DNA of 18,940 nucleotides from a virus (taxonomy: Duplodnaviria; Heunggongvirae; Uroviricota; Caudoviricetes), in IMG/VR virus record IMGVR_UViG_3300011155_000013, positions 1-18,940 of that record; one strand, written 5' to 3'. The notes beneath the pieces were generated by a model. That model saw only the letters and a list, made by a program, of their open reading frames with translations. It had not been told where the DNA came from and searched no databases. Position 1 is the stretch's first letter, and every line of letters begins with the position of its first letter. Below, piece after piece: positions 3,685 through 17,718 of this stretch. The translations under genes were made by a program, and so were the position numbers.

Positions 3685-3713
3685 AGTGAATTCCAGGTTC
3701 TAATTTAATAAGG

Positions 3714-3729: not shown

Positions 3730-3737
3730 GTTTGCCG

Positions 3738-4094: not shown

Positions 4095-4246
4095 GACCCG
4101 TCCTCCAGGAGCAGGCGTAGCAGTTCTTCTTCCAGTTGGTACAGCTCATCGTCCAGCTTGTGAAAGTCTTCAGCGCTGAGTGCCAACGGGTCCCACCGCT
4201 CGTAGAGTTCAGCAACTCTGGCTTCTAGCTCGCGGACTCGTTGCAT
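3974..4246 (-). CDS. Hypothetical acidic helical protein (about 51-aa core; frame runs 121 nt into the next gene)
   Basis: GAGG upstream of ATG 4246; MQRVRELEARVAELYERWDPLALSAEDFHKLDDELYQLEEELLRLLLED looks like an amphipathic helix. Confidence 0.6.
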   Translation of the reverse strand: MQRVRELEARVAELYERWDPLALSAEDFHKLDDELYQLEEELLRLLLEDGSCQKSMQGSSERSPTTSRRCFRARAGSATGLGSSTKKGET

Positions 4247-4473
4247 TTGGTCTCAACCTCGTTCATTGCCTCGGCGTAGTCCTCGAACGGGTGGGTCCGG
4301 AACAGGTGGGCCAGCTGGTGGACAATCAGCCTGCAGGCGGGGTCTTTGAGTATCGCGTTGGTGTCTCCACCGGCGTCTCGGATCTCGTAGATCGCCTGCT
4401 GCAGGCCACGGGCGAGGGGAATGGGATTGCAGGCGCCGTCCTGGGCAATCTTGGCGGTTTCGAATCGGTTCAT
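4225..4473 (-). CDS. Hypothetical phage protein, 82 aa
   Basis: GAGGT RBS; ATGA-coupled to the upstream ORF. Confidence 0.75.
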   Translation of the reverse strand: MNRFETAKIAQDGACNPIPLARGLQQAIYEIRDAGGDTNAILKDPACRLIVHQLAHLFRTHPFEDYAEAMNEVETKCNESAS

Positions 4474-4634
4474 GCTTCACCTCTGGCGAGTTGCCAGTCA
4501 CTGATATTTTCGTTGATGAGAGGGCGGAATGGGCCTTGAACGTCCATCGTGCCGTCGCGGTTCACCTTGATGATGACGCCGGTGATGGTGTGGTTGTCGG
4601 CCCGGCGGACATAGTCACCGCGGCGTGGGGTCAT
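4470..4634 (-). CDS. Small hypothetical protein, 54 aa (MTPRRGDYVRRADNHTITGVIIKVNRDGTMDVQGPF...), KOW/SH3-like; not in ORF track
   Basis: Translated by hand; start overlaps the upstream TGA (TGATG) and stop overlaps the downstream ATG (ATGA). Confidence 0.7.
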   Translation of the reverse strand: MTPRRGDYVRRADNHTITGVIIKVNRDGTMDVQGPFRPLINENISDWQLARGEA

Positions 4635-5245
4635 CAGCATGGCCGCACCTGCTCGTGGTAGTGGTCGACGATGTCGCTGAACAACTCGGCTTCCTTGACC
4701 CAGTGCGCCACATGGCCGTCGCCCATGCTCTTGAGCAGGCTGTGCTCGCCGTGCGTAGCTTCGAAGTCCATCACGTCGTCCGGGTCATCGCTCTTGTAGA
4801 GCACGACCGCCGGCCGATCGGCGTAGGTGCCGTGGAGCGCGCCGCCGGAGATGTCGGCGACGATGCGGACGGGGGTCAGCAGGGCGTTCAGCGCCTCCAG
4901 TAACTGCTTGGCGGTCTCCTCGTTCGGCTCGTTGGTAATATGTAGATGGGAGGTGACCTCACCGAGACGCACGGTTGCCTCGATGACCGCCCCGACGCCG
5001 TTGAATTCGCCCAGCACGGTTCTGGATCCGAACCCTGGTTCACCCTCGCGGCGCACCGCCACCGTGCTATCGCCCGCCCAGCAGACCTCGAGGTGTTCGG
5101 GGAGGTCACAGTGGCCGCCGGCCTGGCGCGCGAGTTCCAGCAGATCAGCGTCCTGGTCCTCGGCTATTTCGTAGTAGACGTCGCCCTCGTCCGCGAAGAA
5201 TATGGCGATGGCCGGGAGTAGCTTGAATCCTATGATCTTCATCAC
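4634..5245 (-). CDS. Hypothetical acidic protein, about 203 aa
   Basis: Long ORF coupled to the ardA stop; start is GTG 5245 or ATG 5242. Confidence 0.8.
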   Translation of the reverse strand: MMKIIGFKLLPAIAIFFADEGDVYYEIAEDQDADLLELARQAGGHCDLPEHLEVCWAGDSTVAVRREGEPGFGSRTVLGEFNGVGAVIEATVRLGEVTSHLHITNEPNEETAKQLLEALNALLTPVRIVADISGGALHGTYADRPAVVLYKSDDPDDVMDFEATHGEHSLLKSMGDGHVAHWVKEAELFSDIVDHYHEQVRPC

Positions 5246-5922
5246 CAGTTGCTCCAGAAAAAGTGGCCGTTGTGCTCGCTGATGTCGCAGTCGTCCTTCC
5301 AGACCCGCTCCCAGTCGATGTAGTGGAAGAAGTGGCTGTCGTCCTTGATCTGGCCGGTTTCGATAGCGAACTCCTGCTCCATCTCGGCGCCACTGTCGTA
5401 CTTACCGCGGTAGGCCCCACGAATAGTGCTGATCGGCGTGTCGTTGGTACCGAAGCAGTGTTCGAACGCCTCCAGGATCTCCTGGCCGTCGTCGCCGAAC
5501 TCTTCCTCGGCCTCGGCGATGCGCTCTCGGATCTCGTAGAGCTTGTCGAAGCTGGTGTACTCGCCGACGCTGCCCTCGGGGAACCCTTCGTGGTCGTGGA
5601 TGGCCCACTCTTCGGCGGAGGGGACTTCACCGGTGCCGTGGCAGTGACTGCACCGGTGCCAGGTGGTGATAGAAGGGAGACCGAGTCGTCGAACCTCTGC
5701 GTCATCGCACCCGTGGCGCACCACCATGACCTCTTCGACGCCTTCACACTCTGGGCACTCGACCATCACGTTCGGGTAGGGGCTGGTTATCAGCACCTGC
5801 TCCTTCACGGCCTTGCTCAGATCCTCGGCATCGACATAGTCATCGAGGTCGAGCCAGGCCCCGTGAAGTCGGCCGTTGTTGTAGCTGGCGAGGCATGCGA
5901 CGTAGATGCGCATAATTTCCAT
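5242..5922 (-). CDS. ardA: ArdA antirestriction protein with a CxxC...CxxCxGxG insertion, 226 aa
   Basis: 'RIYVACLASYNNGRLHGAWLDL', 'EEWAIHDHEG', 'GEY', 'YIDWER'; about 49 D+E in 226 aa; AAGGAG RBS at 5929-5934. Confidence 0.92.
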   Translation of the reverse strand: MEIMRIYVACLASYNNGRLHGAWLDLDDYVDAEDLSKAVKEQVLITSPYPNVMVECPECEGVEEVMVVRHGCDDAEVRRLGLPSITTWHRCSHCHGTGEVPSAEEWAIHDHEGFPEGSVGEYTSFDKLYEIRERIAEAEEEFGDDGQEILEAFEHCFGTNDTPISTIRGAYRGKYDSGAEMEQEFAIETGQIKDDSHFFHYIDWERVWKDDCDISEHNGHFFWSNW

Positions 5923-5938
5923 GCTTATCTCCTTAATG

Positions 5939-5950
5939 CTGTAAATACAG
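5939..5950. promoter_or_regulatory. 12-bp palindromic box upstream of the ardA RBS
   Basis: CTGTAAATACAG, between the upstream stop (5952) and the RBS (5934). Confidence 0.7.
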
Positions 5951-5951
5951 G

Positions 5952-6173
5952 TCAATCGACGAGTTCAGTGACGTGTTCTTTGATGACCTCGCCGTCCTTG
6001 AACAGGGTGACCGGTTCGCCGGCTACTCGGCCGTAGCCGGCCTTGCTGAGCTGGACGTACTCGTCAAACTCAGCTACTGCGATGGCGGCGTGTGGGCCTC
6101 GGTAGACGACGCCGATGTTGCCGGCGGTGAGTTCGTAGATCGGCGTGGTTTTGGCCGAGAAATTGGTTGGCAT
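5952..6173 (-). CDS. Hypothetical phage protein, 73 aa
   Basis: AAGGA RBS; co-oriented and tightly packed. Confidence 0.75.
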   Translation of the reverse strand: MPTNFSAKTTPIYELTAGNIGVVYRGPHAAIAVAEFDEYVQLSKAGYGRVAGEPVTLFKDGEVIKEHVTELVD

Positions 6174-6176
6174 GGG

Positions 6177-6377
6177 TCAGTCCTTATGCCGTGTGATGAA
6201 GTGCTCCAGCGCGTTGGCCATCTCTTCTGGCAGAGGCGGTGGGAAGCTCGGGAAGACGATCTCATCGAACTCCGCGCCCACCTCACCGAGCTCCTCGGTC
6301 TTGTTGGTGACATCGATCGCCGCGTCCAGTGCCTCCAGCAAGTTGGTGGCTATGCGGATCAGGTCCTGCTTGGTCAT
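6177..6377 (-). CDS. Hypothetical acidic protein, 66 aa
   Basis: GGAGG RBS; ATGA coupling; 14 D+E. Confidence 0.75.
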   Translation of the reverse strand: MTKQDLIRIATNLLEALDAAIDVTNKTEELGEVGAEFDEIVFPSFPPPLPEEMANALEHFITRHKD

Positions 6378-6649
6378 GCGTCAGCCCTCCGGCGATTGAA
6401 ATAGCCGAGCACCGCGCGCAGTTCGCCGTAGGCGGTGAGGCCCGTTGTGAGGTCGAAGTCGATGACGCCTTCTTCGCCCTCAGCCAGGTGGTTCAGCTCT
6501 CCGCAGAACTCGGCGTCGGCCTCGTCGCACATGATCTGCAGGTCTTCCTTGGCACCGTCACCGTCGAAGGTTTTCACCCAGATGACGCGGTCCTCGGTGA
6601 TGGAGCTTCCGCCGTCGAAGCCGGCGGCTGTGATCTCGTAGACGGTCAT
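6374..6649 (-). CDS. Hypothetical acidic protein, 91 aa
   Basis: AGGAGG RBS; 20 D+E versus 7 K+R. Confidence 0.8.
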   Translation of the reverse strand: MTVYEITAAGFDGGSSITEDRVIWVKTFDGDGAKEDLQIMCDEADAEFCGELNHLAEGEEGVIDFDLTTGLTAYGELRAVLGYFNRRRADA

Positions 6650-6652
6650 TGG

Positions 6653-7234
6653 TCAGTCCTCCTGCTGATAGCCGACCAGCTTGTACTGGTCCTGCCAGGA
6701 CTCGCCGCAGTCGTTGCAGGAGACACCCTGCCAGGCCGCTCCGGCGTCGACCGTCACCGAACCACCGTCGAGGTCTGAACTGCCGCAGTACGGGCAGCGG
6801 GTGCCCCCTTCAGTTGCGTATTGCTCGGGCGTCTGGGGAAGTTTCTGGCTCTCGGCGACCTGCCGGCCATGCACCTGTAGCCGCAGGTAACCCTCGGTCT
6901 CATGGCCTTCGTCCACGAATGGCCACGCCGGCCAGAGTGCCTTCAGTGCGGCGTCCACGTCATCGTCAAAACCACGACTGCAGCTGTGGTTGACGATCAA
7001 CTCGCTCGGGCTGTTGCCCCACACGATGGCCATCCATCCTGTCCCTGCGCCATCCTTGATCATGCGCAGGCCGCAGTCGTCTACGGCGGCACAGTCTTCG
7101 ACGACCTGCTCGATCGACTTGTCTTCGACGAACTCCCAACCGTCGCCGTCGTCCAGCTCGTAGTGTTCCCAGCCCATGCTGCGCAGGCTGCCCAGGATCA
7201 GGCCGAGGGCCAGTTTTTCTGCTTGAAGTGACAT
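6653..7234 (-). CDS. Hypothetical two-module protein with C-terminal Zn-ribbon (CPYC...CNDC), 193 aa
   Basis: GAGG RBS; two CxxC pairs. Confidence 0.8.
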   Translation of the reverse strand: MSLQAEKLALGLILGSLRSMGWEHYELDDGDGWEFVEDKSIEQVVEDCAAVDDCGLRMIKDGAGTGWMAIVWGNSPSELIVNHSCSRGFDDDVDAALKALWPAWPFVDEGHETEGYLRLQVHGRQVAESQKLPQTPEQYATEGGTRCPYCGSSDLDGGSVTVDAGAAWQGVSCNDCGESWQDQYKLVGYQQED

Positions 7235-7244
7235 GATGGCTGCC

Positions 7245-7514
7245 TCAGCTGAAGTCGGCGGGGGTGAGTGGAATGGTGCGGAGGAATACGCCTCGCACTT
7301 GTTCGCCGTTGGTGGTTGTGAGAAGGGCTCTACCGTCGTAGCAGAGAGTCACTTCCTGCTGCTGATCCAAGGTGACGGTCGCGTCGTTCGAGAGGGTCAG
7401 CGTGACTATGCCGGAGAACCCCGCGCCGCCCGGGTAGTCGAAGGTTTCCACCTCACATCCGTTGATGTGCTCGATGTCCGCGACGTCAAACAGGCGCTTC
7501 AATTTGATTTTCAT
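7245..7514 (-). CDS. Hypothetical protein, 89 aa
   Basis: CAGGAG RBS overlapping the 12-bp box. Confidence 0.75.
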   Translation of the reverse strand: MKIKLKRLFDVADIEHINGCEVETFDYPGGAGFSGIVTLTLSNDATVTLDQQQEVTLCYDGRALLTTTNGEQVRGVFLRTIPLTPADFS

Positions 7515-7526
7515 GTTGCCTTACTC

Positions 7527-7538
7527 CTGTAATTACAG
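7527..7538. promoter_or_regulatory. 12-bp palindromic box
   Basis: CTGTAATTACAG (perfect palindrome) in a 26-bp junction; overlaps the CAGGAG RBS on the minus strand. Confidence 0.7.
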
Positions 7539-7540
7539 TT

Positions 7541-7918
7541 CTAAGCCGCTGATCTAACCGGCGGAAACACAATCGACGCCTCCGTCTGGCCCTCGTCAGC
7601 GAACCACTTCTTCTCGAGCAGCAGGTCGGTGGCGATCTCGCAGGCCTCCCCGGCATCAACGGTGCAGCCTGGCAGGTAGCTGATCACCGCCACGAAGAGC
7701 ATCTCGAAGCCGGCCTGGTAGCCAACGTAGGTCACGTCGTAGCGGTCCTTGATGGCGGAGATCGGGTGCTCGGCCAGCGCGTCGTCGACCACAAAGGACG
7801 TCAGTTCCTTGAAGCGATCCTGGTTCAGCATGTCGCACTGCTCATCCGTCAGCTCCGGCATCTCTGTGCAGGCTGGGCAGCCGTCGTGGTGGTCGTGGAA
7901 GGGGTCGGTGCAACTCAT
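7541..7918 (-). CDS. Hypothetical acidic protein with N-terminal Cys/His cluster, 125 aa
   Basis: ATGA coupling; 'CTDPFHDHHDGCPAC'; 24 D+E. Confidence 0.75.
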   Translation of the reverse strand: MSCTDPFHDHHDGCPACTEMPELTDEQCDMLNQDRFKELTSFVVDDALAEHPISAIKDRYDVTYVGYQAGFEMLFVAVISYLPGCTVDAGEACEIATDLLLEKKWFADEGQTEASIVFPPVRSAA

Positions 7919-8556
7919 GCCGCGCGCTCCTGCAGGTAGTCGTGAATGGTGAACAGCCGGCCGATGTCAGGCGTGGCTTGGATGATCCACTCGTCCAGCC
8001 TTCCGTTGCAGCGAGCCGACTCCATGAGGTCGTGCTCTGTCCACATGTCGAAGCCCATCGCCTGCTCGTCGATGTAGGCTGCGATCAGCGTGCCGACCTC
8101 GTTGTGGTCCCAGGTCTCGATCTCGTCCCAGTTGTCGAGGTTGGCCGAGTAGAAGCTGATGAAACCGCTGCGGCTGGTGAATCGCTCGCGCACCTTGTCG
8201 CGGAAAGCCTTTTCGCTGGTCTCTGCCCTCAGTCGGCGAACCTCGTCCAGCTCGATCTCACAGAAGATCCGGTCGGTGTCGAAGTTGTACTCGCGCGGCG
8301 ATTTCAGCGACTCGAAGGTCAGGGCGATCTTGAACTCGGCGGCCAGTGCTTTGGCATATTCCGCGGCGTAGTTGCCGTGCACGAGACCCCACTGGCAGGC
8401 GCCGAAGGCCCGGTCGCGGAGCTTGTCATTAATCGAACAACCGGTGTCACGGTCGCTGAACATCTGATCCAGCGCGTCGTCGAGGCTGCTGTCGTGGGGG
8501 CTGTTGTAGAAGCCGGAGAAGGGGATGGTGGTTAGCATGGCGGCTGCCTTTGGCAT
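7915..8556 (-). CDS. Conserved hypothetical phage/MGE protein, 213 aa
   Basis: GAGGAG RBS; 'TTIPFSGFY', 'SPREYNFDTDRIF', 'SRSGFISFYS' look like conserved family motifs that I cannot name. Confidence 0.85.
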   Translation of the reverse strand: MPKAAAMLTTIPFSGFYNSPHDSSLDDALDQMFSDRDTGCSINDKLRDRAFGACQWGLVHGNYAAEYAKALAAEFKIALTFESLKSPREYNFDTDRIFCEIELDEVRRLRAETSEKAFRDKVRERFTSRSGFISFYSANLDNWDEIETWDHNEVGTLIAAYIDEQAMGFDMWTEHDLMESARCNGRLDEWIIQATPDIGRLFTIHDYLQERAA

Positions 8557-8557
8557 T

Positions 8558-8875
8558 TCAATACTCCTCAGCCAGCAGGATGGTCAGCAGTCGGCCGGTC
8601 TTGTCCGGGTCGCTAGGGTCTTCGGAGCCGAACTGATACAGCGGGTCGTAGTAGTCGATCTCCCAGAAGATCCGCTCGCCGGCGACATCCAGGGCACCGA
8701 AGTCGTGTTCGCCGTAAGGGTCGTCACCCTCGGTGAAACCGTCGAAGGCGCGCACCGCGGCGATGATTTCTTCCTTGGCCGGGTGGTTGGCCACACCTTT
8801 GGTGAGTACCGTACGGCCGCCGAGGCCGGTGGTGCGGAGCATATCGTTGAGCTGGGCAATCGTCGGGGTTTCCAT
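8558..8875 (-). CDS. DUF3768 family protein, 105 aa
   Basis: 'IAQLNDMLR', 'FTEGDDPYGEHDFG', 'IFWEIDYYD', 'GSEDPSDP..T.RLLTILLAEEY'. Confidence 0.85.
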   Translation of the reverse strand: METPTIAQLNDMLRTTGLGGRTVLTKGVANHPAKEEIIAAVRAFDGFTEGDDPYGEHDFGALDVAGERIFWEIDYYDPLYQFGSEDPSDPDKTGRLLTILLAEEY

Positions 8876-9018
8876 CACTTCACTTCCTTCAGTTGATATC
8901 CTTCAAACGCCTGCGCCTTCCATTTCTGGATGGCGTCTTCAGTGGCGTCCTTCTTTTGTGGGTGGGTTTTGCCGCTGATCCACTTGCCGTTCCGGCGAAG
9001 CTGAACTTGCCAGGCCAT
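8875..9018 (-). CDS. Small basic protein, 47 aa (MAWQVQLRRNGKWISGKTHPQKKDATEDAIQKWKAQAFEGYQLKEVK); not in ORF track
   Basis: Translated by hand; CAGGAG RBS upstream; TGA overlaps the DUF3768 ATG. Confidence 0.7.
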   Translation of the reverse strand: MAWQVQLRRNGKWISGKTHPQKKDATEDAIQKWKAQAFEGYQLKEVK

Positions 9019-9030
9019 AAACGCTTACTC

Positions 9031-9042
9031 CTGTAATTACAG
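9031..9042. promoter_or_regulatory. 12-bp palindromic box
   Basis: CTGTAATTACAG, extendable to CCTGTAATTACAGG (9030-9043); overlaps the CAGGAG RBS. Confidence 0.7.
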
Positions 9043-9045
9043 GGA

Positions 9046-9318
9046 TCAGGCCGCGATTTGATCCTCGCGGCGTTGCCAGACTCCGACGTAGTCGATGCCC
9101 TTGGCGCGGTAGAGCCAGTCTTCCAACTCCTCCTCGGTCATGCGGGTGTCGACCCAGACCTGGGTGTAGCCGGGGTCTTCTCGGTAGGCACCGGCCTTGA
9201 TTACCGACATGGTCGTCTTCAGCGGCGCGAGCCGGCGCACCAGGGTGCTTGCGGAGTGGGTCTCGACGTCGATGCCGAGGCGGTGGATTGGGGCTTTGGC
9301 GGGGATCTGGACGGCCAC
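9046..9318 (-). CDS. Hypothetical protein, 90 aa
   Basis: GTG start overlaps the upstream TAG; GGAG RBS. Confidence 0.7.
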   Translation of the reverse strand: MAVQIPAKAPIHRLGIDVETHSASTLVRRLAPLKTTMSVIKAGAYREDPGYTQVWVDTRMTEEELEDWLYRAKGIDYVGVWQRREDQIAA

Positions 9319-9665
9319 TAGATTGGCTCCATCTGACTGAACAGTTTGTCGTCAATATTCACTACGGCTCCCCAGCGATCTCCACGCCACACCCGGCCAG
9401 TGCGGTGGCTTTCATCCTGAATAGACCAATAAAGTCCGAACGGACCTATGTGGGTTACTTCCGCCGGCACCGTGGGCACATCAGCAATCTCGTAGCCCTG
9501 GGCCGCCATGACGCCGGCGATCGCGTCGCAGGTGTCGCTGTCCCACTCTTTGCCGGACAGTAAGGACTGGATCTGGTCCAGCGTCTTGGCGGCACGGGAA
9601 AACGTGTCGTCCGGCACTCGCTCACCTTGTTCATAGGCGTAGATCAGTTCGGATGGGGTCTTCAC
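9318..9665 (-). CDS. Hypothetical protein, 115 aa
   Basis: GTGA coupling; GAGGAG upstream. Confidence 0.75.
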   Translation of the reverse strand: MKTPSELIYAYEQGERVPDDTFSRAAKTLDQIQSLLSGKEWDSDTCDAIAGVMAAQGYEIADVPTVPAEVTHIGPFGLYWSIQDESHRTGRVWRGDRWGAVVNIDDKLFSQMEPI

Positions 9666-9961
9666 TCTTCACACTCCTCAATATGGGTGGTCGTGCAGCC
9701 GGGGTTCGCAGCCAAGCACTGCTCCTCGGCGTCTTCCTCGCTGACCGCCTGGCAGTAGAACTCGTGCATCTCGTTCATCTCCTCGTCGCCGGCGGCGTAG
9801 AAGACCACCGTGAAGTCGCGCGGTAGGTCGTCCGACTCGTACGGCTCGATCTCGGCGCCGCAGACCGGGCACTCGTCGTTGCACTGGCAGGACCAGGTGT
9901 CGGTCCATTGCGTGCCGCAGTGGCGGTAGTAGTTGAGGAAGCGGGCTGGTTCAGTTTTCAC
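9662..9961 (-). CDS. Hypothetical very acidic Cys-rich protein, 99 aa
   Basis: GGAGG RBS before GTG 9961; 'HCGTQWTDTWSCQCNDECPVCG'; 24 D+E versus 4 K+R. Confidence 0.8.
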   Translation of the reverse strand: MKTEPARFLNYYRHCGTQWTDTWSCQCNDECPVCGAEIEPYESDDLPRDFTVVFYAAGDEEMNEMHEFYCQAVSEEDAEEQCLAANPGCTTTHIEECEE

Positions 9962-11171
9962 AGGGCACCTCCGGGCGGGCATTGAGCCGGTCAGCCACCT
10001 TGTCGGCGCCGATCACCTTCAGCGTTTCAGAACACTCATCGCAGCCAAGGACGAACTGGCAGCGCACGTCGTTCGTATTCAGCCTGTTCTGCGGGACGCC
10101 GGTGGTGATGACGTTCTGCGTGCACCACGTCAGCGATTTGCTGCCGCACTCATGACAGGTGGTGACTTCGGTGAGCGGCTGCGGGGCGGTCTGCGCGATG
10201 GGGCCGGCGTAGAACTTTCGGATTTCCCAAACGTCCGGCAGCCCTTTTGCCAGCTGCTCAGCGTTGGCTTCTGCACACCACGCGGCGCGCTCGGCAGTGC
10301 TGTCTTGCCACCAACGTTCCTCTACTTTCTGCCCTGGTAGGTATCGCACTTGCCATTGCTCCACAGGCTGCTGCTCGGTCTGCGCGATGGGGCCGGCGTA
10401 GAGCGCAACCTGCTTCGAGCCAGCAGGCTTACCAGCCAGAGCTGTCTTGTCGAAGTTCTTCGCGTCGTCTTCGGTCGGGTGCAACCAGCTGCCGAAACGG
10501 CCATTACGGAAATTGGCGTATCCGACAGGCTGCTGCTCGGTCTGCGCGGCACGCAATTCGTCTATCTCCATTTGCATCCCGCCACACTGGGCGCGGAGAT
10601 CGCTATTCTCGCGTTCCAGATCGGCCTGCACGGGGCGTGCTGACAGAGCGGGGCGTGCAAGAAAGGCATCCAACAACACTTGGAATGCATCACAAACGGA
10701 TGCCGGCAGTTGGCCACCAGCTTCCACCGTATGCGGTGCTAGCAGTTCGCACAGGTGGGTGTAGGTGCCTTCGTAGATGTCCTCATCCTGCGCCGGGGCT
10801 GGCTTTTTCGTGCATGCAGGACACGGGAAGCCATCGCGCCGCCAGTCGTCGTGCGCAACATCGTCGCAAAACTGAGCCGGGGCTGGCTCGGCCGATACCC
10901 CATGCTCCAGCGCCGCCTCGCGCAGTGCATCCTCGACGTCACCCGGGATCAGGTAGTTGCGCAGGTAAGCGCACTCGTCGTACTGAAGCAGCACGGTGAG
11001 GTTTTCCGGGAACAGGTGCCCCGGCACCCGCACCACGTTGCTGACGCCGCGATCGGCGTCGACGAAGGCCACGATGTTGCCCCCACCCACTTCACGCAGC
11101 AGAAGGGTCCAGGCGATGCGCTGGCCGTGTTCGGTGTACTCGCGGCCGGTGTTGAACGTGTTGATCTTCAT
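9951..11171 (-). CDS. Mosaic multi-module phage protein, 406 aa (architecture reminiscent of lambdoid Ea22/Ead-type chimeras)
   Basis: Repeated linkers PAPAQ x2, AQTEQQPV x2, YAGPIAQT x2; C-terminal CHEC...CDEC module. Confidence 0.8.
   Translation of the reverse strand: MKINTFNTGREYTEHGQRIAWTLLLREVGGGNIVAFVDADRGVSNVVRVPGHLFPENLTVLLQYDECAYLRNYLIPGDVEDALREAALEHGVSAEPAPAQFCDDVAHDDWRRDGFPCPACTKKPAPAQDEDIYEGTYTHLCELLAPHTVEAGGQLPASVCDAFQVLLDAFLARPALSARPVQADLERENSDLRAQCGGMQMEIDELRAAQTEQQPVGYANFRNGRFGSWLHPTEDDAKNFDKTALAGKPAGSKQVALYAGPIAQTEQQPVEQWQVRYLPGQKVEERWWQDSTAERAAWCAEANAEQLAKGLPDVWEIRKFYAGPIAQTAPQPLTEVTTCHECGSKSLTWCTQNVITTGVPQNRLNTNDVRCQFVLGCDECSETLKVIGADKVADRLNARPEVPCEN
10187..10548. repeat. 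In-frame direct repeats inside the 406-aa gene
   Basis: 27 bp identical at 10187-10213 and 10376-10402; 24 bp identical at 10363-10386 and 10525-10548. Confidence 0.9.
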
Positions 11172-11794
11172 CCCTCAAACCCTCCATCCTCGTTGAACGT
11201 GTACCCGCAGCCGCGAAGGGCTTCATCGACCTGCTCATCAGCGGTCAACCAGTCATGCTCGGATTCCAGTTGGTCGTAGATCCAGTCGGCGAAGAGCCGG
11301 AGCGCGTCCCGGATGTCGCTTTCGGCATCACCGACGTCCCGGTACATGCTGTCTGTATGGGTCACCTCCACGCTCATGCAGCCGCTGTGTTGGTAGTACC
11401 CTCGGTGCCGGCAAGTGGCCTCCAGCTTGTAGAACTGCTTGCTCTGAATCTCTTGCAGTGCCTGGCCAATGCTCAGCAACTCGTTAAGCGTGTCGCCCGG
11501 GCCGAACTCGTGGAGCAAAGCCGATCGCCAGCCCTTCTTGTAGCGGTAGGAACCCTCGAAGCACGCGCCGTCGCCCTGGCTCCAGAATCCGCTGAAGTAG
11601 ATCGCCGGCGTGTATTTGCCTTTGCGGTCAATGTCGATGCCCAGGTGCTTGGCAGCGGTGTCAGCCTGCTCGTAGACGCTGTCCCACCAGTCGTAGTCGA
11701 GCTGGCCGTTGCGGTACCACTCGCGGGCCTCCTCCTTGGCGGAGTCGGAGAGCTCGTCGAAGGTGTAGATGAGGTATTGCTTGAGTGCGGGCAT
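11168..11794 (-). CDS. Conserved MGE protein, 208 aa (family often auto-labelled 'antitoxin of toxin-antitoxin stability system'; function unproven)
   Basis: 'YTFDELSDSAKEEAREWYR', 'DWWDSVYE', 'IYFSGFWSQGDGACFEG', 'LESEHDWLTADEQVDE...YTFNEDG'. Confidence 0.8.
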   Translation of the reverse strand: MPALKQYLIYTFDELSDSAKEEAREWYRNGQLDYDWWDSVYEQADTAAKHLGIDIDRKGKYTPAIYFSGFWSQGDGACFEGSYRYKKGWRSALLHEFGPGDTLNELLSIGQALQEIQSKQFYKLEATCRHRGYYQHSGCMSVEVTHTDSMYRDVGDAESDIRDALRLFADWIYDQLESEHDWLTADEQVDEALRGCGYTFNEDGGFEG

Positions 11795-11796
11795 GG

Positions 11797-11967
11797 TCAG
11801 TCCTCCCACTCTTCTTCAACCACCACACCGACCGCCTTGGCATGAGCTGTGATGCCATTGAGCGTCTCGTGAAGGTCTCGCCAGTCATAGCCGGCGTGCA
11901 GGTCTTGGAGCATCGTCAGCGCGCTGCGAAGTGCGCTCTGAACCGCTTCTACTGTTGGTTCGGCCAT
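11797..11967 (-). CDS. Hypothetical protein, 56 aa
   Basis: GAGG RBS before ATG 11967 (MAEPTVEAV...). Confidence 0.65.
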   Translation of the reverse strand: MAEPTVEAVQSALRSALTMLQDLHAGYDWRDLHETLNGITAHAKAVGVVVEEEWED

Positions 11968-11969
11968 AG

Positions 11970-12113
11970 TCAACCTCGCTTCTGCCGCAGGCGGGCACAT
12001 TTGCTGTGATCGATCTTGTTGCCACCGCCGCGGCGCCGGCCGCAGATGTCGCAACGGTTGGTGAGGCGCTGGTCGAGGCCTCGGGCTCCCATCGGCTGGG
12101 GTTTCCAGGTCAT
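11970..12113 (-). CDS. Small basic Zn-finger-like protein, 47 aa
   Basis: ATG 12113 coupled to the upstream stop; 'CDICGRRRGGGNKIDHSKC'. Confidence 0.65.
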   Translation of the reverse strand: MTWKPQPMGARGLDQRLTNRCDICGRRRGGGNKIDHSKCARLRQKRG

Positions 12114-12328
12114 TGGCCACCCCCGGCGCGGAAGGAGTAGGTGCAGCCGCCGGTGACGATGGTTCCTGGCTTGCGGCGCTCGTACCACTGAGCCGGCACG
12201 CTGACCTGCATGCAGGGCACGCCGTCTTTGGCCAGCACGATGCGCTGGAAGCTGTGGTCGGCCATCGTGCGCGGGATCTCGCGCACCACGGTGTGGGGCA
12301 CGCCGTCAACGTAGAGGGTGGTCATCAC
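12110..12328 (-). CDS. Hypothetical protein, about 72 aa
   Basis: GAGGGAG RBS; coupled at both ends. Confidence 0.7.
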   Translation of the reverse strand: MMTTLYVDGVPHTVVREIPRTMADHSFQRIVLAKDGVPCMQVSVPAQWYERRKPGTIVTGGCTYSFRAGGGQ

Positions 12329-12843
12329 GCCGCTCCCTCAGCCAGCGCCGGCCCGTCGACGAACTGAAACTGCTCGTCCAGCTTGAAGTAGGTGCCCGGC
12401 AGTGCACCTTCCAGCTCGCTGTGCAGGTGGTGCAGGCGCTCGTCCAACGCCTCGATTTTCATCGAACCGTTCAACGTACCCACCTCTTGCCACTCGTCCT
12501 GGAAGCGCTGCTCCAGGTGCATCGGGTGCTGGCCGGGGCGCATGGGGTAGGGCATCAGGTAGAGGCGGCACTGGCTGCTGCCGGGGGCCTCGGGGGTGGA
12601 ACGGCCCACGCGGGAGGGCGGGGCCACCACGAGGGTGTAGCGGGTCTCCAGGCGCAGTTTCCAGCCCTTCTTCTCGGCGGTGCCGCCGCTTCGGACGATC
12701 TGGCCGAGGCGCATGGCCTCGGCGGTTTCGTTGGCGGTCATTCCGCCTCCGCAGAGGTTGAGCAGCATCTGCTCGAGGCGATCGGCAGGGCCTTTGGCGA
12801 CCATGCCGTCGGGGTTGGTGACGATGAGTTGGCGGGTGTCCAT
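12325..12843 (-). CDS. Hypothetical protein, 172 aa
   Basis: AAGGAA RBS after an AT-rich gap. Confidence 0.75.
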   Translation of the reverse strand: MDTRQLIVTNPDGMVAKGPADRLEQMLLNLCGGGMTANETAEAMRLGQIVRSGGTAEKKGWKLRLETRYTLVVAPPSRVGRSTPEAPGSSQCRLYLMPYPMRPGQHPMHLEQRFQDEWQEVGTLNGSMKIEALDERLHHLHSELEGALPGTYFKLDEQFQFVDGPALAEGAA

Positions 12844-12882
12844 GTGAATTCCTTATATGCTTATTACTTTATTTATGGGTTG

Positions 12883-13158
12883 TTACCAGTCGTAAGCCGG
12901 TAGGTCGTCAACGATTTCGCCGTCGCAGTCGAGGCGGATCCAGCGGTCGTCAAAGTGATGGGCCGTTAGCCAGTTGGCGATGTCGATCAGGCAGCGCGGT
13001 GCGTCTTCAAGGGTGTGGAAGCGCAAGAAGAATCCGTACGTCCACGACGCACAGGTTACCCAGGCGTTGTCGTTGCCAAGTTCGGTGAGGGTTGCGGCCA
13101 CCGAGGCTGTGATGTGGGCAGTGCTGATGGTTGGGATAACGGCGGTCTCGATTTCCAT
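12883..13158 (-). CDS. DUF5983-like protein, 91 aa
   Basis: 'ISTAHIT', 'YGFFL', 'WIRLDCDGEIVDDLPAYDW'; start moved to ATG 13158 after CAGGAAG. Confidence 0.65.
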   Translation of the reverse strand: MEIETAVIPTISTAHITASVAATLTELGNDNAWVTCASWTYGFFLRFHTLEDAPRCLIDIANWLTAHHFDDRWIRLDCDGEIVDDLPAYDW

Positions 13159-13167
13159 GGGTTCTTC

Positions 13168-13179
13168 CTGTAAATACAG
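13168..13179. promoter_or_regulatory. 12-bp palindromic box
   Basis: CTGTAAATACAG in a 25-bp junction; overlaps the CAGGAAG RBS. Confidence 0.7.
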
Positions 13180-13183
13180 TTCT

Positions 13184-13369
13184 TTAACCCAGCCGATTCG
13201 ACGGCCAGACGTGTTTGGTGCCTCGGGGGTGCTGGACTTCGACCCACCGGTAGGACTTGCCTGGCAGCGGCTCACCTACGCTGGTGACGGTGCCTTGGTA
13301 GCCGGCGTCGCCGCGGTCGGCGGGGCAGCGGACGATCTGGCCGACGAGGAATCGGCGTGGCTCACTCAT
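13184..13369 (-). CDS. Small KOW/SH3-like protein, 61 aa
   Basis: 'FLVGQIVRCP...GTVTSVG...WVEV...HVWPS'. Confidence 0.7.
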   Translation of the reverse strand: MSEPRRFLVGQIVRCPADRGDAGYQGTVTSVGEPLPGKSYRWVEVQHPRGTKHVWPSNRLG

Positions 13370-13592
13370 CGGGAATCCCCTTGTTTGCCGGCAACTCGCC
13401 CTTCACGCGGCGGGCGCAGCTGTCGATCTGGAACCAGCCTCCGCAGCGGCACTTGTACTGCTCGCCCTGGACGTCCTCCACGTCGTCGCCATCCAAGCCG
13501 ATGATGTCCTGGCAGTGTGGGCACCGACAGATCAGGCTGCGGTCGTGGTCGCGGGCGACGTGGTGCACGTCGTAGATGTATTCGTCAGCCAT
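13362..13592 (-). CDS. Small Zn-ribbon-like protein, 76 aa
   Basis: GGAGG RBS before ATG 13592; CPHC and CRCG pairs. Confidence 0.75.
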   Translation of the reverse strand: MADEYIYDVHHVARDHDRSLICRCPHCQDIIGLDGDDVEDVQGEQYKCRCGGWFQIDSCARRVKGELPANKGIPDE

Positions 13593-13803
13593 TGGGCACC
13601 TCCAGCGCTTGATTGACTTCGGCGGCCAGCTTGTCGACGGCCGCGTAAATGGCATCTCCGTAGTCCGGCTCGCAGTTGTAGACCGTGCCGTTCTTCAGCG
13701 AGACGACGATGTGGGTCCGGTGGTAGGACGGCTCCACGCCGGAGACTTGGTCGGCTGCGACGTAGCGGGTCTCGTTGCCGGGGAGTTTGATCAGTCGGCT
13801 CAT
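13585..13803 (-). CDS. Hypothetical phage protein, 72 aa
   Basis: ATG 13803 in ATGA overlap (MSRLIKLPGNETRY...). Confidence 0.75.
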   Translation of the reverse strand: MSRLIKLPGNETRYVAADQVSGVEPSYHRTHIVVSLKNGTVYNCEPDYGDAIYAAVDKLAAEVNQALEVPNG

Positions 13804-14222
13804 GACAGCAGCTCCTGGGGCACCATGACGACCTCGCCGAGCTTGGCCGCGACGAGGCAGCGCATGGCGGAGATGAGGGGTGTGGGGCCGTAGGAGTGCT
13901 CGCTTCGGCCCCGGTTCATGCACGCACGCCAGTCCGGCGAGGCGTCCTTGAATCGGCTGGCCTGTTCAGCGCTCAGGTTGCAGAACACCTCGATGCCGTG
14001 CCTCTCGATCAGCGGTCCGCCTTGGCTCCAGTCGGTCGACGGACAGTAGTTCTGTTTCTCTGACCAGCCGCTACTCAGTACCCGATCCGCCCCATTGAGG
14101 GTGAACCACCAGCACGCCACCGTATCGAAGTGCAGGTTGGTGGCGCCTTCTGACATGGCCACCGCCCAATCCAGCGCCTTGCCTTCCAGCTCAGTGGTCT
14201 TCACTTCGATCATTTTGGTCAT
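13800..14222 (-). CDS. DUF2591/NinX-like phage protein, copy 2, 140 aa
   Basis: 'VKTTELEGKALDWAVA', 'YCPSTDWSQGGPLIE', 'GPTPLISAMRCLVAAKLGEVVMVPQELLS'; start moved to ATG 14222. Confidence 0.85.
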   Translation of the reverse strand: MTKMIEVKTTELEGKALDWAVAMSEGATNLHFDTVACWWFTLNGADRVLSSGWSEKQNYCPSTDWSQGGPLIERHGIEVFCNLSAEQASRFKDASPDWRACMNRGRSEHSYGPTPLISAMRCLVAAKLGEVVMVPQELLS

Positions 14223-14596
14223 GACAGCAGCTCCTGTGGCACCTGCACCGTGTCGCCGAGCTCGAACTGAACGACTACCCGGCAGGCGGCGATGAGGTAG
14301 TCCTTGCCGCGGCCCTCGATCAGCGGGCCGGGGTCGTTCACGTCGTTGTTCAGGTAGGCGACGATCTCGCCAGTTGTGGTGGTCTGAAGGTCGGGGCGGT
14401 ACTTGGCGATCAGCGGGCCGCACTGGTCCCAGTTGGATGAGGGGGCATAAACCCCCATCATCCAGGGGATATGGAAGCCCTCCGGGAAGGTGACGATGTG
14501 CCCAGGCTCATCCACTGCGCCTATTGCTCGCTTTACCGCCCAATCCAGCGCCCCGCCTTTCAATTCGGCGGTCTTCACTTCGGTCATTTGGGTCAT
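14219..14596 (-). CDS. DUF2591/NinX-like phage protein, copy 1, 125 aa
   Basis: 'VKTAELKGGALDWAV', 'YAPSSNWDQCGPLI', 'YLIAACRVVVQFELGDTVQVPQELLS'; start at ATG 14596. Confidence 0.85.
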   Translation of the reverse strand: MTQMTEVKTAELKGGALDWAVKRAIGAVDEPGHIVTFPEGFHIPWMMGVYAPSSNWDQCGPLIAKYRPDLQTTTTGEIVAYLNNDVNDPGPLIEGRGKDYLIAACRVVVQFELGDTVQVPQELLS

Positions 14597-15150
14597 TGGC
14601 ACTTCCCCTTGCATCCCATGCGCTCGCAGCCGCCGGGGAATCCGTCCTTGTCGCAGCCGTCTGGGTAGTCGGGACCTTCGCTTTCCAGCAACGGCCGCGC
14701 CGCCACCAGCGCGTCATTGAGCAGCCCGACGTCCGCCGGCACCTTGGCCAGGTACGGCAGCAGCTGGTCGAGCGAGGCGACGCAGAGGGTGAGCGCCTGT
14801 TCGAGCTCGAAGGCTCGGGTGGCTTCGGCGCAGGCGCGCTTTTGCCAGGTGTTGGCGTCATCGCGCAGATCGTCGTTTAGTTTTTCCAGGTCTCGGCAGG
14901 ATGCTTTCAACTGGCTGTTCTCGCCTGCCAGCGTCGCGTCATCCGCATATCCTGCGTTGAGCATCGCCATGAAGTCGTCGCGGTAGGCGTCCTTGATCCG
15001 GTCGGCGAGTGCCGGTAGTTGGTGGGTGAAGACCGCCATTTCCAGCCTGCGCTCGACGTCGGCGTGGAAGTCGCCGAAGTCCTGACAGCACTGGATGCCG
15101 GTGAACCCGGTGATGATCAGCGCCTGCTCTTTCGTAAGGGGTGTGCTCAT
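14593..15150 (-). CDS. Hypothetical modular protein with central coiled coil and Cys-rich tail, 185 aa
   Basis: Start moved to ATG 15150 (MSTPLTKEQALIITGFTG...), downstream of the box and CAGGAA. Confidence 0.75.
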   Translation of the reverse strand: MSTPLTKEQALIITGFTGIQCCQDFGDFHADVERRLEMAVFTHQLPALADRIKDAYRDDFMAMLNAGYADDATLAGENSQLKASCRDLEKLNDDLRDDANTWQKRACAEATRAFELEQALTLCVASLDQLLPYLAKVPADVGLLNDALVAARPLLESEGPDYPDGCDKDGFPGGCERMGCKGKCQ

Positions 15151-15160
15151 CTTCTTGTTC

Positions 15161-15172
15161 CTGTATTTACAG
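15161..15172. promoter_or_regulatory. 12-bp palindromic box
   Basis: CTGTATTTACAG in a 26-bp junction. Confidence 0.7.
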
Positions 15173-15176
15173 TTGA

Positions 15177-15563
15177 TTACGCCGCAAGCGGCTTGGTATG
15201 CGAGCAGTGTTGGCACTGCCATCCGCTCTCGGTCATCACCATCGGCTTGTAGTGGCACTTGGGAACCTGACCGAAGACGAATGGCTGGCCCGGGAGGATG
15301 CCCAGGGCGTCAGTGGTCCGCTGGACGATGTTCAGCGCGCACTGGATGACCGCTTTGTCATCTGGTAGCCGGGCCAGCGCCTTCATTTTGGGCTGTTGCT
15401 CCCGCATCACCTTTCCGGCGAGGCGGTGGGCCGCGGCCCGGACGGCTGCCGCAGTGCCGTGTTCGCGGAGGACAAGTGCCATGACCAGGACGGTGTCGAC
15501 GCTGTTGAGCTGCATTGAGGCGGTGCGGAGCTTCCAGGTCGGGATGTTGAGGACGTTCATCAT
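15177..15563 (-). CDS. Hypothetical Pseudomonas-phage-type protein with C-terminal Cys/His motif, about 128 aa
   Basis: 'HGTAAAVRAAAHR'; 'KCHYKP...WQCQHCSH'. Confidence 0.75.
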   Translation of the reverse strand: MMNVLNIPTWKLRTASMQLNSVDTVLVMALVLREHGTAAAVRAAAHRLAGKVMREQQPKMKALARLPDDKAVIQCALNIVQRTTDALGILPGQPFVFGQVPKCHYKPMVMTESGWQCQHCSHTKPLAA

Positions 15564-15592
15564 TTGCCTCGGCCGTCGGGTTTTCTCATCAT
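15560..15592 (-). CDS. 10-aa bridging mini-ORF MMRKPDGRGK
   Basis: ATGA overlap with the upstream stop (15589-15591) and with the downstream start (15563). Confidence 0.4.
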   Translation of the reverse strand: MMRKPDGRGK

Positions 15593-15840
15593 CTTCTGTT
15601 CATCCTTCGGTTGTAGTCCTCGGCCAGCTCCTCGACGTCGTGCCCGGCCAGCTCTTCCGCGGTGAAGACCTTCTGGAAGTGCTCGGGCTTGAAGTGCACG
15701 GTCGCGCCTGGGGTGTAGAGCAGGTGGTAGGTTCCCGCCTTGGCGTGTTGCCGTTGCTGGGCGGTGACGTCGCGGTAGAGGCAGTTGTTGAGGAGGGCGG
15801 CTTGCAGGCGGTGGAGGTCGAGGTGGATCACTTCGCGCAC
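15589..15840 (-). CDS. Hypothetical protein, 83 aa
   Basis: GTG start; co-oriented. Confidence 0.65.
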   Translation of the reverse strand: MREVIHLDLHRLQAALLNNCLYRDVTAQQRQHAKAGTYHLLYTPGATVHFKPEHFQKVFTAEELAGHDVEELAEDYNRRMNRR

Positions 15841-16160
15841 CTTTTCGCCATCTCGATGCCAGCCCGGAGGATTGCCCGGCGGGTGGCAGCGTGTGGGTCC
15901 CCGCCATGTGGCTCCATCACGCCCAGCGGCTGCACCGCGGTGTAGTCATCGCCTATATCGAGAGGGAGCCGCAGGTCTACTGCCAGCTTGAGAGCCTGTT
16001 CTCCGTCCCGCTCCGGCTCCCAGGCAAACGACAGGCAGCTCTCAGGCCCTTGGCCCGGGTGCTTGACGATGAGCTTGTTGCCGCGAGATGACCAACAGAC
16101 GGGCTGAAGCCCGACAAATTTGGCGACCAGTAGCAGGTCTTTTCTGGTGATCGTGGTCAT
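15828..16160 (-). CDS. Conserved Pseudomonas-phage-type hypothetical protein, 110 aa
   Basis: ATG 16160 in ATGA overlap; 'WEPERDGEQALKLAV.L', 'ATRRAILRA'. Confidence 0.8.
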   Translation of the reverse strand: MTTITRKDLLLVAKFVGLQPVCWSSRGNKLIVKHPGQGPESCLSFAWEPERDGEQALKLAVDLRLPLDIGDDYTAVQPLGVMEPHGGDPHAATRRAILRAGIEMAKRCAK

Positions 16161-16511
16161 AATTTGACATCCCCTGAGACCGTTCTGACGTTGCCCATTA
16201 CCTGCTTGCATGTCACATCGCCGCTGACGGTGCGGACTTCGCCGGCGACGTCACCACAGCGAATGTCACCGCTGGTGGTGGTCACGTCGTGGCAGTCGCC
16301 GGTTACCGTTACGTCGCCGCTAGCGGTGGTCAGCTGTTCCACATCACCATGCACCGTGACGCTGATCGGGCCGACAAGTGACCCCTCCTGCCTGACTCCG
16401 TTGACAATCACCAGGTCGTCGATGATCTCTACGTGCCGGCCGCGGAAGGACTTTCCGTCGATCGTTACGCTGCCGGTGGTTTTGAATAGGGCTCGCAGTC
16501 GTTTTGATCAT
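16157..16511 (-). pseudogene. Beta-solenoid (DUF4097-like T.SGDV repeats) gene with an apparent 1-nt frameshift near its start
   Basis: The coupled ATG 16511 is out of frame with the repeat-bearing frame (open 16507-16157). Removing one base from the run at 16502-16505 gives MIKRLRALFKTTGSVTIDGKSFRGRHVEII...SGDVKL. Confidence 0.65.
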
Positions 16512-16828
16512 TCGATCGTCACTCCCTTGCTCCTGACAGCCTCTCTGCACCGGTTCAGCATGCCCATCTCGGCGCCGATCACTGCCTCTGTCATCTCCAG
16601 CTCGTCGATGTCCATATCGTCGTGATCTGCAGGGTCAGGCCACTCCGGCGCCGGCGGCAGCTTGATGACCAGGGCGGCGCGGGAGCGGTGCCAGCCAATC
16701 CACATGAAGTTGACATACTCACAGAGGTAGCTGCCGCTCGCTTCGTCCCACGACGTGTCCTTCGCCCACGGGGCGATAGGGGAGGTGGCGAGGTCTTCCT
16801 CGAACTCCTTCCTCAGTTCCTCGGTCAT
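16508..16828 (-). CDS. Hypothetical phage protein, 106 aa
   Basis: ATG 16828 in ATGA overlap; 'MWIGWHRSRAALVIKLP'. Confidence 0.8.
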   Translation of the reverse strand: MTEELRKEFEEDLATSPIAPWAKDTSWDEASGSYLCEYVNFMWIGWHRSRAALVIKLPPAPEWPDPADHDDMDIDELEMTEAVIGAEMGMLNRCREAVRSKGVTIE

Positions 16829-17052
16829 TTGGCACGCTCCATGAACTTGGCGTAGCTGATCCGGCCGTCGGGGTTCCACCCGGCGTTGAGTGCTTTGCGA
16901 GTCTCGGCGCGGAAGGCGTCCTGCTCGGCGGCGGTGACCTCGGTGAAGCCTTCGTTGAGGGTCCGCTCCACGTCCTTGGCGACTGCTCGGCCCCCGCCGG
17001 CGTGGATACGGCACATGCGGGTTTTGTGGTTGACGAAGTAGCTGGTTTTCAC
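16825..17052 (-). CDS. Hypothetical phage protein, 75 aa
   Basis: GGAGG RBS; GTG 17052 in GTGA overlap. Confidence 0.75.
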   Translation of the reverse strand: MKTSYFVNHKTRMCRIHAGGGRAVAKDVERTLNEGFTEVTAAEQDAFRAETRKALNAGWNPDGRISYAKFMERAK

Positions 17053-17707: not shown

Positions 17708-17718
17708 GTGAACTCCTT

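Follow-up and report, generated by a model that had tools for sequence, protein, structure and literature searches.

The DNA analysed here (the window) is 18,940 nt long and corresponds to positions 1 to 18,940 of the IMG/VR record IMGVR_UViG_3300011155_000013, a single virus record of 82,940 bp (the contig). The element is evidently a prophage of about 83 kb integrated in the 5' end of the host gene lepA, and the window, to judge by its gene content, covers the leftward early region of a temperate Stutzerimonas siphophage, a long arm of small genes. Genes from 2.1 to 19.4 kb are all on the minus strand, and they include a homolog of ardA (nt 5242–5922, minus strand; Pfam ArdA, 2.9e-25). Several of the short gaps between these genes contain a 12 bp palindrome, CTGTAWWTACAG, which is probably the core of a genome-wide DNA operator of this phage, read by a small repressor that the phage itself encodes.

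A pattern scan found exactly five matches to CTGTAWWTACAG in the window, at nt 5939, 7527, 9031, 13168 and 15161, which are the five exact copies listed in a preliminary description of this DNA made from the sequence alone. No match occurred in 200 dinucleotide-preserving shuffles of the window (0/200), and an independent composition estimate gives the same expectation, about 0.001 chance copies per window, as that description had given. In the minus-strand reading, the exact copies lie 1–4 nt past the stop codon of the preceding gene, within stop-to-start gaps of 26–29 bp, in agreement with the gaps of 25–30 bp between stop codon and ribosome-binding site (RBS) claimed earlier. The sites, which are given without strand, are placed as follows: CTGTAAATACAG at nt 5939–5950 is 16 nt upstream of the ardA ATG (minus strand) and is conserved in three related proviruses (G002, G003 and G004); CTGTAATTACAG at nt 7527–7538 is 12 nt upstream of the ATG of an open reading frame (ORF) of 89 aa (nt 7245–7514); a second CTGTAATTACAG at nt 9031–9042 is 12 nt upstream of a 47-aa ORF (nt 8878–9018) that leads into a DUF3768 gene; CTGTAAATACAG at nt 13168–13179 stands 9 nt before the ATG of a gene with a DUF5983 domain; and CTGTATTTACAG at nt 15161–15172 precedes the ATG of a DUF7736 gene by 10 nt. 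At four copies, the terminal CAG of the motif starts the RBS, as had been described, and continues as CAGGAG, CAGGAG, CAGGAAG and CAGGAAC; the fifth copy (nt 5939), which precedes ardA, reads CAGcattaAGGAG. The near-matches at nt 2387 (one mismatch), 17805 (one mismatch) and 17735 (two mismatches) were also found as stated before. The first of these (nt 2387–2398) forms part of a minus-strand feature (nt 2365–2398) in which the TTTACA of the site is the −35 element of a sigma70-like promoter and an extra half-site flanks the palindrome; it is conserved in G002–G004. The other two (nt 17735–17816, minus strand) flank a hairpin with an 11 bp stem in the gap upstream of a 96-aa gene (nt 17417–17707). 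The 47-aa ORF (MAWQVQLRRNGKW...) overlaps the start of the DUF3768 gene and, being below common ORF-length cut-offs, was missed by a 50-aa ORF listing.

The motif is not confined to the window. Across the 82.9 kb contig there are 11 exact and nine one-mismatch copies, and the top 10- to 12-mers of the phage genome are words derived from the motif. All 20 sites with at most one mismatch lie between called genes, in a contig of which only about 10% is intergenic, so that the earlier observation of no copy inside a coding sequence holds for the entire contig. Sites occur in the early, structural, lysis and replication modules, and outside the early arm they precede the genes for the portal, the major capsid protein, a tail protein encoded after the tape measure, the tail fibre, an SbcD-like protein, ligase, ThyX, a helicase, a ribbon-helix-helix (RHH) protein and an ArsR-family protein. 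An enrichment in the early arm only, as had been expected, is therefore not what is seen. Nor do the genes that follow sites form the proposed anti-defence regulon, as ardA is the only recognisable anti-defence gene among them. The five window copies are, on this evidence, genuine regulatory sites with ardA behind one of them, and ardA and its neighbours would be part of a genome-wide control scheme and not a separately switched anti-defence regulon.

Five related proviruses from IMG/VR (TerL 85–99% identical, genome identity 74–89%) carry 7–12 exact copies each, and a reversed-pattern control word had none. Orthologous sites persist while their flanks diverge: GTA and TAC were identical in 48 of 48 comparisons, and the site centre flips among AA, TT and AT between relatives. 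In the genomes of three lytic relatives the motif is missing, also when one mismatch is tolerated, and no other word is repeated in a comparable way. Only one exact copy was found in five host-type genomes of Stutzerimonas and Pseudomonas (22.8 Mb), which is about the chance expectation. These counts bear on a test set out in the preliminary description, in which a motif common in host DNA or lacking in relatives would have spoken against a regulatory role; the motif proved to be rare in the one and conserved in the other. The single host copy (CCTGTATTTACAGG) is in Stutzerimonas stutzeri V81 (L125:1490–1560), directly after a sigma54-like TGGCAC-N5-CTGCT box and some 35 nt before pilA, the gene for the type IV pilin; a phage repressor site at the promoter of a pilus, a potential receptor, would be of interest even though a single copy is what chance predicts. 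The one-mismatch 14-mer host matches that were examined (recurring as CCTGTTTTTACAGG) are tRNA-Gly terminators.

At two of the window sites, nt 7527 and 13168, the match to three related proviruses breaks off 6 nt past the site (nt 7521–7538 and 13162–13179), and the genes downstream (nt 7245–7514 and about 12883–13158) are replaced by unrelated DNA in the relatives. A role of the motif as a recombination junction for cassette swapping was considered on this account and found unconvincing, since breakpoints are only modestly commoner at junctions with a site (e.g., 4/12 vs. 17/91).

The extended consensus of the sites is W-C-CTGTA-WW-TACAG-G-W, that is, two abutting half-sites of 7 bp, CCTGTAW and WTACAGG. 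Each motif-bearing genome contains 9–13 convergent half-site pairs at 7 bp and 6–7 direct pairs at exactly 8 bp; further spacings are 15, 16 and 24, and no preferred divergent spacing was found in these genomes. A degenerate CTGTA is found 8 bp outside each half of exact sites, and weaker extra half-sites flank many full sites in the 8 bp register. No such lattice was found in the lytic relatives or in shuffled sequences. More distant phages with the same gene order next to lepA have dispersed intergenic repeats in the 8 bp register but made of other words (GCTGTAT, CCCACAT and GCGTAAAT). Two of them, L151 and L156, keep the same register with their own words, and in L156 the word GCTGTAT occurs mainly as three direct 8 bp repeats. 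The use of other words in the same lattice, in one phage mainly as direct repeats, is more readily explained by a DNA-binding protein that co-evolves with its sites than by an RNA hairpin, and the modular lattice is regarded as the signature of a cooperatively binding protein that reads short subsites.

Some of the sites overlap predicted promoters. Only nine sigma70-like promoter matches were found in 83 kb, and three of the nine have their −35 element inside a site; the overlap expected is 0.06 by random placement and an estimated 0.4 or so once the TTTACA of the motif itself is allowed for. The three are TTTACA-17-TAGTAT at nt 2387, aimed at a 64-aa gene and an excisionase-like gene, and one predicted promoter each ahead of the RHH gene (TTGACA-17-TAGGAT) and the ArsR gene (TTTACA-17-TACTGT), both of which are retained in G005, the close relative that has diverged furthest. 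The sites are best read as repressor operators, occluding promoters at a few places and lying between cistrons elsewhere.

The preliminary description saw no regulator in the window, and indeed no strong candidate is found there. Two candidates are encoded about 63 kb away, near attR: a 68-aa RHH protein (contig nt 81245–81451; strand KKFTMDMP) and, adjacent to it, an 87-aa ArsR-family protein (contig nt 82336–82599). An exhaustive profile search gave 31 relatives, on whose contigs the order next to lepA is integrase, ArsR, a protein of about 200 aa (p200), RHH, two small genes and a helicase. The RHH, ArsR, integrase and excisionase-like genes are found in those motif-bearing genomes whose records reach that far, and the lytic relatives lack them. 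Genes present in the motif-bearing clade and absent from the lytic phages Lana and UAntarctica include those for the integrase, the excisionase-like protein, an 80-aa possible helix-turn-helix (HTH) protein, ArsR and RHH. The RHH protein gave an Arc-like PHROG match (4.3e-6). Its homodimer model reached an interface score (interaction prediction score from aligned errors, ipSAE) of 0.47 against 0.00 for the best control, a value that may reflect likeness to, or memory of, solved RHH dimers; the mark applied to such models is reached by 20 of 30 solved homodimers and by 1 of 23 single chains. The homodimer runs agreed in at least 96% of contacts, with a predicted local distance difference test (pLDDT) score of at least 67, and the modelled contacts, residues 23–28 with 23–28 and 50–60 with 50–60, are the pattern of an RHH ribbon and helix 2. 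The ArsR protein is assigned with HTH_20 (4.9e-10) and HTH_5 (9.9e-9), and its relatives in the PDB are PagR, HlyU and CadC.

The site word, the RHH strand and the ArsR recognition helix can be compared across lineages. The phage studied here and G002 combine CCTGTAW with KKFTMDM and SQANASRHL, and G005 has the same word with KKFTLDM and SQATASRQL. In L148, the word CC(C/T)GTAT...TACAGG is found with KKFTMDM and SQATVSRHL; in L156, GCTGTAT with TKFTLVL and SQPVVSQNL; in L158 and L159, a word of the GCGTAAAT type with KKLTVMV and SQPNVSRSL; and in L151, CCCACAT with KKFSIEL and RQPSASNHL. K23 and T25 of the RHH protein do not vary among the phages that retain the GTA core; where CAC takes the place of that core, T25 is replaced by S. 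Distant RHH and ArsR homologs recovered by word search (L135 and L138) are not accompanied by the motif. The constancy of K23 and T25, the drift of the ArsR helix and a lattice of subsites like that of the RHH protein omega favour RHH over ArsR, weakly, and the chance that RHH is the reader is put at a little under even.

The competing proposal is that the ArsR-family winged-helix protein reads the sites, alone or together with RHH; it would then be the lysogeny repressor, and RHH would have a narrower, Cro- or Arc-like role. Its family assignment is confident (HTH_20, HTH_5), its gene is the first next to attP/attR, and the putative promoter of that gene is covered by the densest site array. 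The protein accompanies the motif system in every case, and its recognition helix is also changed in the phage with a changed motif. Against this, the helix differs at 2–5 of nine positions among phages that keep the CTGTA core (SQANASRHL, SQATASRQL, SQATVSRHL and SQPVVSQNL), and direct or convergent arrays of 7–8 bp subsites are what RHH proteins typically bind; the usual target of an ArsR dimer is a single, longer inverted repeat. A prophage remnant at this attachment site also keeps the RHH gene and its neighbour without ArsR; it lies on a metagenomic, Pseudomonas-type contig (L154:900–1780), where only the RHH gene and a 102-aa neighbour remain between lepA and mucD, and apparently belongs to the same prophage family. 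ArsR is considered an unlikely reader. With joint action and other phage-encoded readers included, a DNA-binding repressor of the phage itself is the probable reader of the sites, and the operator for an element-encoded regulator, one of the options of the preliminary description, is the best reading of a motif that is specific to the element, maintained in its relatives and all but missing from host genomes.

Several points weigh against this reading or against RHH as its agent. A six-frame search of the contig returned no HTH_3 (CI/Cro-type) and no Peptidase_S24 (LexA-like) domain. The RHH protein is below threshold for every Pfam RHH family (best 0.012), and the model of its monomer is of low quality (pLDDT 66; the strand comes out as a helix). 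Every full-length relative has both ArsR and RHH, so that co-occurrence cannot separate them, and the covariation of strand and word comes from about six lineages and one clear switch. To our knowledge, roadblocking by an RHH protein at a single 14 bp site is not an established mechanism. Nine sites abut the RBS, larger folds enclose the Shine-Dalgarno sequence at nt 7527 and 13168 (z = −2.3 and −2.9), and perfect hairpins of 24 nt are found at contig nt 31245 (−20.9 kcal/mol, z = −7.2) and 23205 (−12.7 kcal/mol). The flanks of the latter two show compensatory changes in relatives, CAGAC/GTCTG to CGGAC/GTCCG and GGCGAC/GTCGCC to GGCAAC/GTTGCC (contig nt 31233–31268 and 23193–23228), and neither hairpin is followed by a U-tract. 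This suggests an added structural or RNA role at some sites, e.g., upstream of the major capsid gene.

Such folds speak for a reading of the motif as a short RNA hairpin 5' of the RBS, serving as the target of a translational repressor or as a processing or stability element that divides polycistronic mRNAs, an option also named in the preliminary description. The placement of 9 of the 20 sites at 3–16 nt from a start codon agrees with this, as does the run of the motif into the Shine-Dalgarno sequence in four window copies. The stem of the 12-mer alone, however, contributes no more than −1.8 to −2.7 kcal/mol, and shuffled sequences fold as well as three of the five window sites. Relatives retain the nine one-mismatch sites with no compensating change, and several of these have an internal pair broken. 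Extra half-sites occur as direct repeats at 8 bp, and, most tellingly, the sites of L156 are mainly three direct repeats, which are unable to pair. Sites are also found in a 970 bp divergent control region, over −35 boxes and before an intrinsic terminator, and an Rfam search of the window found nothing. The RNA option is thus disfavoured and judged quite improbable, the weak fold, the uncompensated mismatches and the direct repeats in related phages being the main grounds. Two specific RNA functions were rejected: the sites are not intrinsic terminators, as no U-tract follows them and terminator-like matches in the window are at shuffle level, and an RNase E site is excluded by the unbiased orientation of the central AA/TT. 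At the DNA level, the motif could be a phage-specific promoter or activator site that turns blocks of genes on, much as the preliminary description had modules being switched on together. It does contain TTTACA, a 5/6 match to the −35 hexamer, and −10-like hexamers are found 17–18 bp after three or four sites. Yet at the nine sites nearest to an ATG the gap is too short to fit a −10 element, a transcription start and a leader that carries a Shine-Dalgarno sequence, TTTACA is unbiased in orientation relative to the gene (centre TT at nine, AA at six and AT at three), the centre flips between relatives, and no sigma-factor region 2 was found in the phage. Activation is accordingly given very little credence, and repression or a roadblock fits better. 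Equally remote is a host factor as reader, most plausibly of the GntR/HutC type, through which the prophage would be wired to the urocanate/histidine signal of its host. The core of the HutC operator Phut in Pseudomonas has the consensus TGTA-N2-TACA, and one low-affinity HutC site tested in vitro ends in ...TACAGG (PMC12977541). The phage core, TGTAWWTACA, fits that consensus in an equally compact palindrome, and the phage is without a classical CI-type repressor. On the other hand, the listed HutC sites have T beside TGTA (CTTGTA...TACAAG) where all exact phage copies have C, there is no GntR domain in the contig (PF00392 at E ≤ 1), and no host regulon is apparent: the one exact copy in the five host-type genomes is upstream of pilA and not at hut genes, and HutC-like TTGTANNTACAA sites in these genomes are few. 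The site word also changes from one phage lineage to the next in a set of phages that all integrate at lepA and so presumably have similar hosts, which points to a phage-encoded reader. The LexA SOS box (CTGT-N8-ACAG) was dismissed as well; its half-site is the same, but the spacer is 4 in the phage instead of 8, and no Peptidase_S24 domain is encoded in the contig.

Operators of other mobile elements offer partial parallels. The KorA/KorB sites of IncP plasmids and the CUP (conserved upstream) repeats of IncN plasmids are palindromes of 12–13 bp that precede several operons of the element and are controlled by an element-encoded global repressor, with ard genes among the IncN targets; their sequences are unrelated to the phage motif. 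The repeated palindrome is a shared trait, but in the phage the sites are inside operons beside the RBS rather than at promoters, and these analogies, drawn in the preliminary description, do not apply to a tailed phage without conjugation genes. In Cluster K mycobacteriophages, the start-associated sequence (SAS) is a conserved word immediately upstream of many start codons that overlaps the RBS; it is asymmetric and always start-associated, whereas 11 of the 20 sites described here are 25–250 nt from a start codon or in control regions, and the motif is a palindrome with a half-site lattice. In function, the closest likeness is to the stoperators of Cluster A mycobacteriophages, where the repressors of L5 (gp71) and TipsytheTRex recognise a short word that is present more than 20 times, at promoters and in intergenic gaps, and are proposed to silence both initiation and elongation (PMC9283540). 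As among the phages compared here, the site word of heteroimmune Cluster A phages is reported to diverge along with the regulators (PMC6550527). In both systems the genome of a temperate phage is dotted with copies of the site, which lie at promoters and, in every module, in short gaps between genes. The L5 sites differ in being asymmetric 13-mers with an orientation that tracks transcription, the present sites being palindromic, set in a 7/8 bp lattice and without orientation bias. The L5 repressor is a monomer with an HTH and a 'stoperator' domain, and the candidate here is a putative RHH dimer in a phage of a gamma-proteobacterium. No Cluster A-type repressor domain was found in the six-frame HTH_3 search or in Pfam scans of about 100 ORFs, in which the gp71 sequence itself was not used as a query. 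The phage system would thus work like the Cluster A system without being a member of it, as one defining feature, the asymmetric and orientation-dependent site, is lacking and another, the two-domain monomeric repressor, is not recognisable.

In subsite arrangement, the motif is nearer to the operators of RHH proteins. Omega of pSM19035 binds 7 bp repeats in direct or inverted arrays, with one dimer per repeat (PMC9499535). Its WATCACW heptads share with the phage sites the use of short subsites in direct or convergent but not divergent order and arrays over the (in the phage, putative) promoter of the regulator itself; they are bound cooperatively, as is proposed for the phage sites. MetJ, with its 8 bp met boxes, and Arc and Mnt of P22 are likewise RHH repressors that bind subsite arrays as cooperative dimers, and the candidate strand KKFTMDMP may have a counterpart in the KKITVSIP of MetJ. 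The mark of RHH arrays, subsites of 7–8 bp in a fixed direct or convergent register, is present in the phage sites. A difference is one of scale: omega, MetJ and Arc control a handful of promoters, and here 83 kb contain some 20 or more sites, most of which are palindromes of just two subsites and lie between cistrons rather than at promoters.

A mechanism along the following lines can be envisaged. A small dimeric repressor encoded by the phage, most likely the 68-aa RHH protein and less likely the 87-aa ArsR protein, would bind each half-site, the dimers binding cooperatively. Where a site covers the −35 element of the RHH, ArsR or excision-gene promoter, binding would block initiation; at the intercistronic sites, including all five exact copies in the window, the bound protein would act as a roadblock within long polycistronic units. 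The whole prophage, ardA included, would be silent in the lysogen and released together. The broadest version of this scheme, that a family of lepA-integrating temperate phages of about 80 kb in the Pseudomonas group silences its whole genome with a very small RHH protein through a 7/8 bp lattice in nearly every non-overlapping gene junction, is speculative and on balance doubtful. If true, it would be a Gram-negative, symmetric-site counterpart of the mycobacteriophage stoperators and would extend the design of one repressor and many sites, worked out so far for Cluster A mycobacteriophages, to proteobacterial prophages with another fold and another site geometry. The half-site words CCTGTAW, GCTGTAT, CCCACAT and GCGTAAAT would then define heteroimmune groups, and the phages would provide a natural series for the co-evolution of RHH strand and operator and for a minimal dimer-of-dimers that blocks RNA polymerase beside RBSs. 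A system as compact as a 68-aa protein and a 14 bp site could be used in studies of roadblocks, of repressor/operator specificity and of superinfection immunity groups. The motif and its variants are also a cheap annotation marker of this prophage family and its gene-cassette junctions, and the framing of the locus changes from an anti-defence regulon of a conjugative element to a genome-wide operator set of a temperate phage.

The limits of the element are visible in the contig, both ends of which are host DNA. Nucleotides 1–288 encode the tail of a MucD-type PDZ protease that is 100% identical to that of Stutzerimonas nitrititolerans, and the 5' end of the host lepA is found at the far end. 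The displaced original 5' end of lepA marks attL (nt 452–508, plus strand), with a core, TCCATCATYGCGCACATC, that is repeated at both junctions. At attL (nt 290–660), the original lepA start is followed by a stop codon and left stranded, and at attR (contig nt 82,600–82,940) the phage contributes a new lepA N-terminus; repeats of the GCGTACATAG type near both junctions resemble integrase arm sites. The prophage encodes a tyrosine integrase (nt 645–1949, plus strand; Pfam Arm-DNA-bind_3, Phage_int_M and Phage_integrase), and it is considered temperate on this account. Next to it, on the minus strand (nt 1946–2334), are the 64-aa gene and a 65-aa gene for an excisionase-like DNA-binding protein (PHROG DNA-binding protein, 2.6e-10; excisionase, 1.9e-6), both downstream of the operator-promoter at nt 2387.

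The structural and lysis genes of the contig specify a gpA-type terminase, portal, major capsid protein, S49 protease, tail tube, a tape measure of 1752 aa, homologs of gpL and gpJ, and an endolysin. A large replication arm encodes PolA, ribonucleotide reductase, ThyX, ligase, SbcCD-like proteins, dUTPase, SNF2 and Dda-like helicases and RtcB. Among named phages, the closest are UAntarctica, Lana and PMBT3, which infect Pseudomonas and are lytic, with 55–60% amino acid identity in TerL and PolA and the same gene order. The phage gene content, the lack of conjugation genes and the relationship to these three phages exclude an integrative and conjugative element or a plasmid. A megablast search of the window against the GenBank phage collection gave no match, and no terminase relatives were found in GTDB representative genomes.

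A 970 bp non-coding region (contig nt 22933–23905) separates the leftward early arm from a rightward HU/IHF-like gene (Bac_DNA_binding, 1.7e-14). It holds one exact site and a triple direct half-site array, and is probably the main control region or an origin. The first leftward gene encodes 238 aa and is shared with the lytic relatives as well. Between its stop codon and a strong intrinsic terminator (GCCGCCttcgGGCGGC and then T9) lies a one-mismatch site (contig nt 22140–22215), and read-through into the 20 kb early arm may be regulated at this point. The ArdA homolog has 209 residues matched to the 155-position Pfam model, and weak Cys-rich matches at residues 56–106 (DnaJ CXXCXGXG/Anti-TRAP) suggest an inserted segment resembling a zinc ribbon. 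In the related phage L151 (nt 19342–19835), precomputed Pfam matches indicate genes with Acb2/Tad1-hairpin and Sequestin domains (anti-CBASS/anti-Thoeris sponge) in the replication arm.

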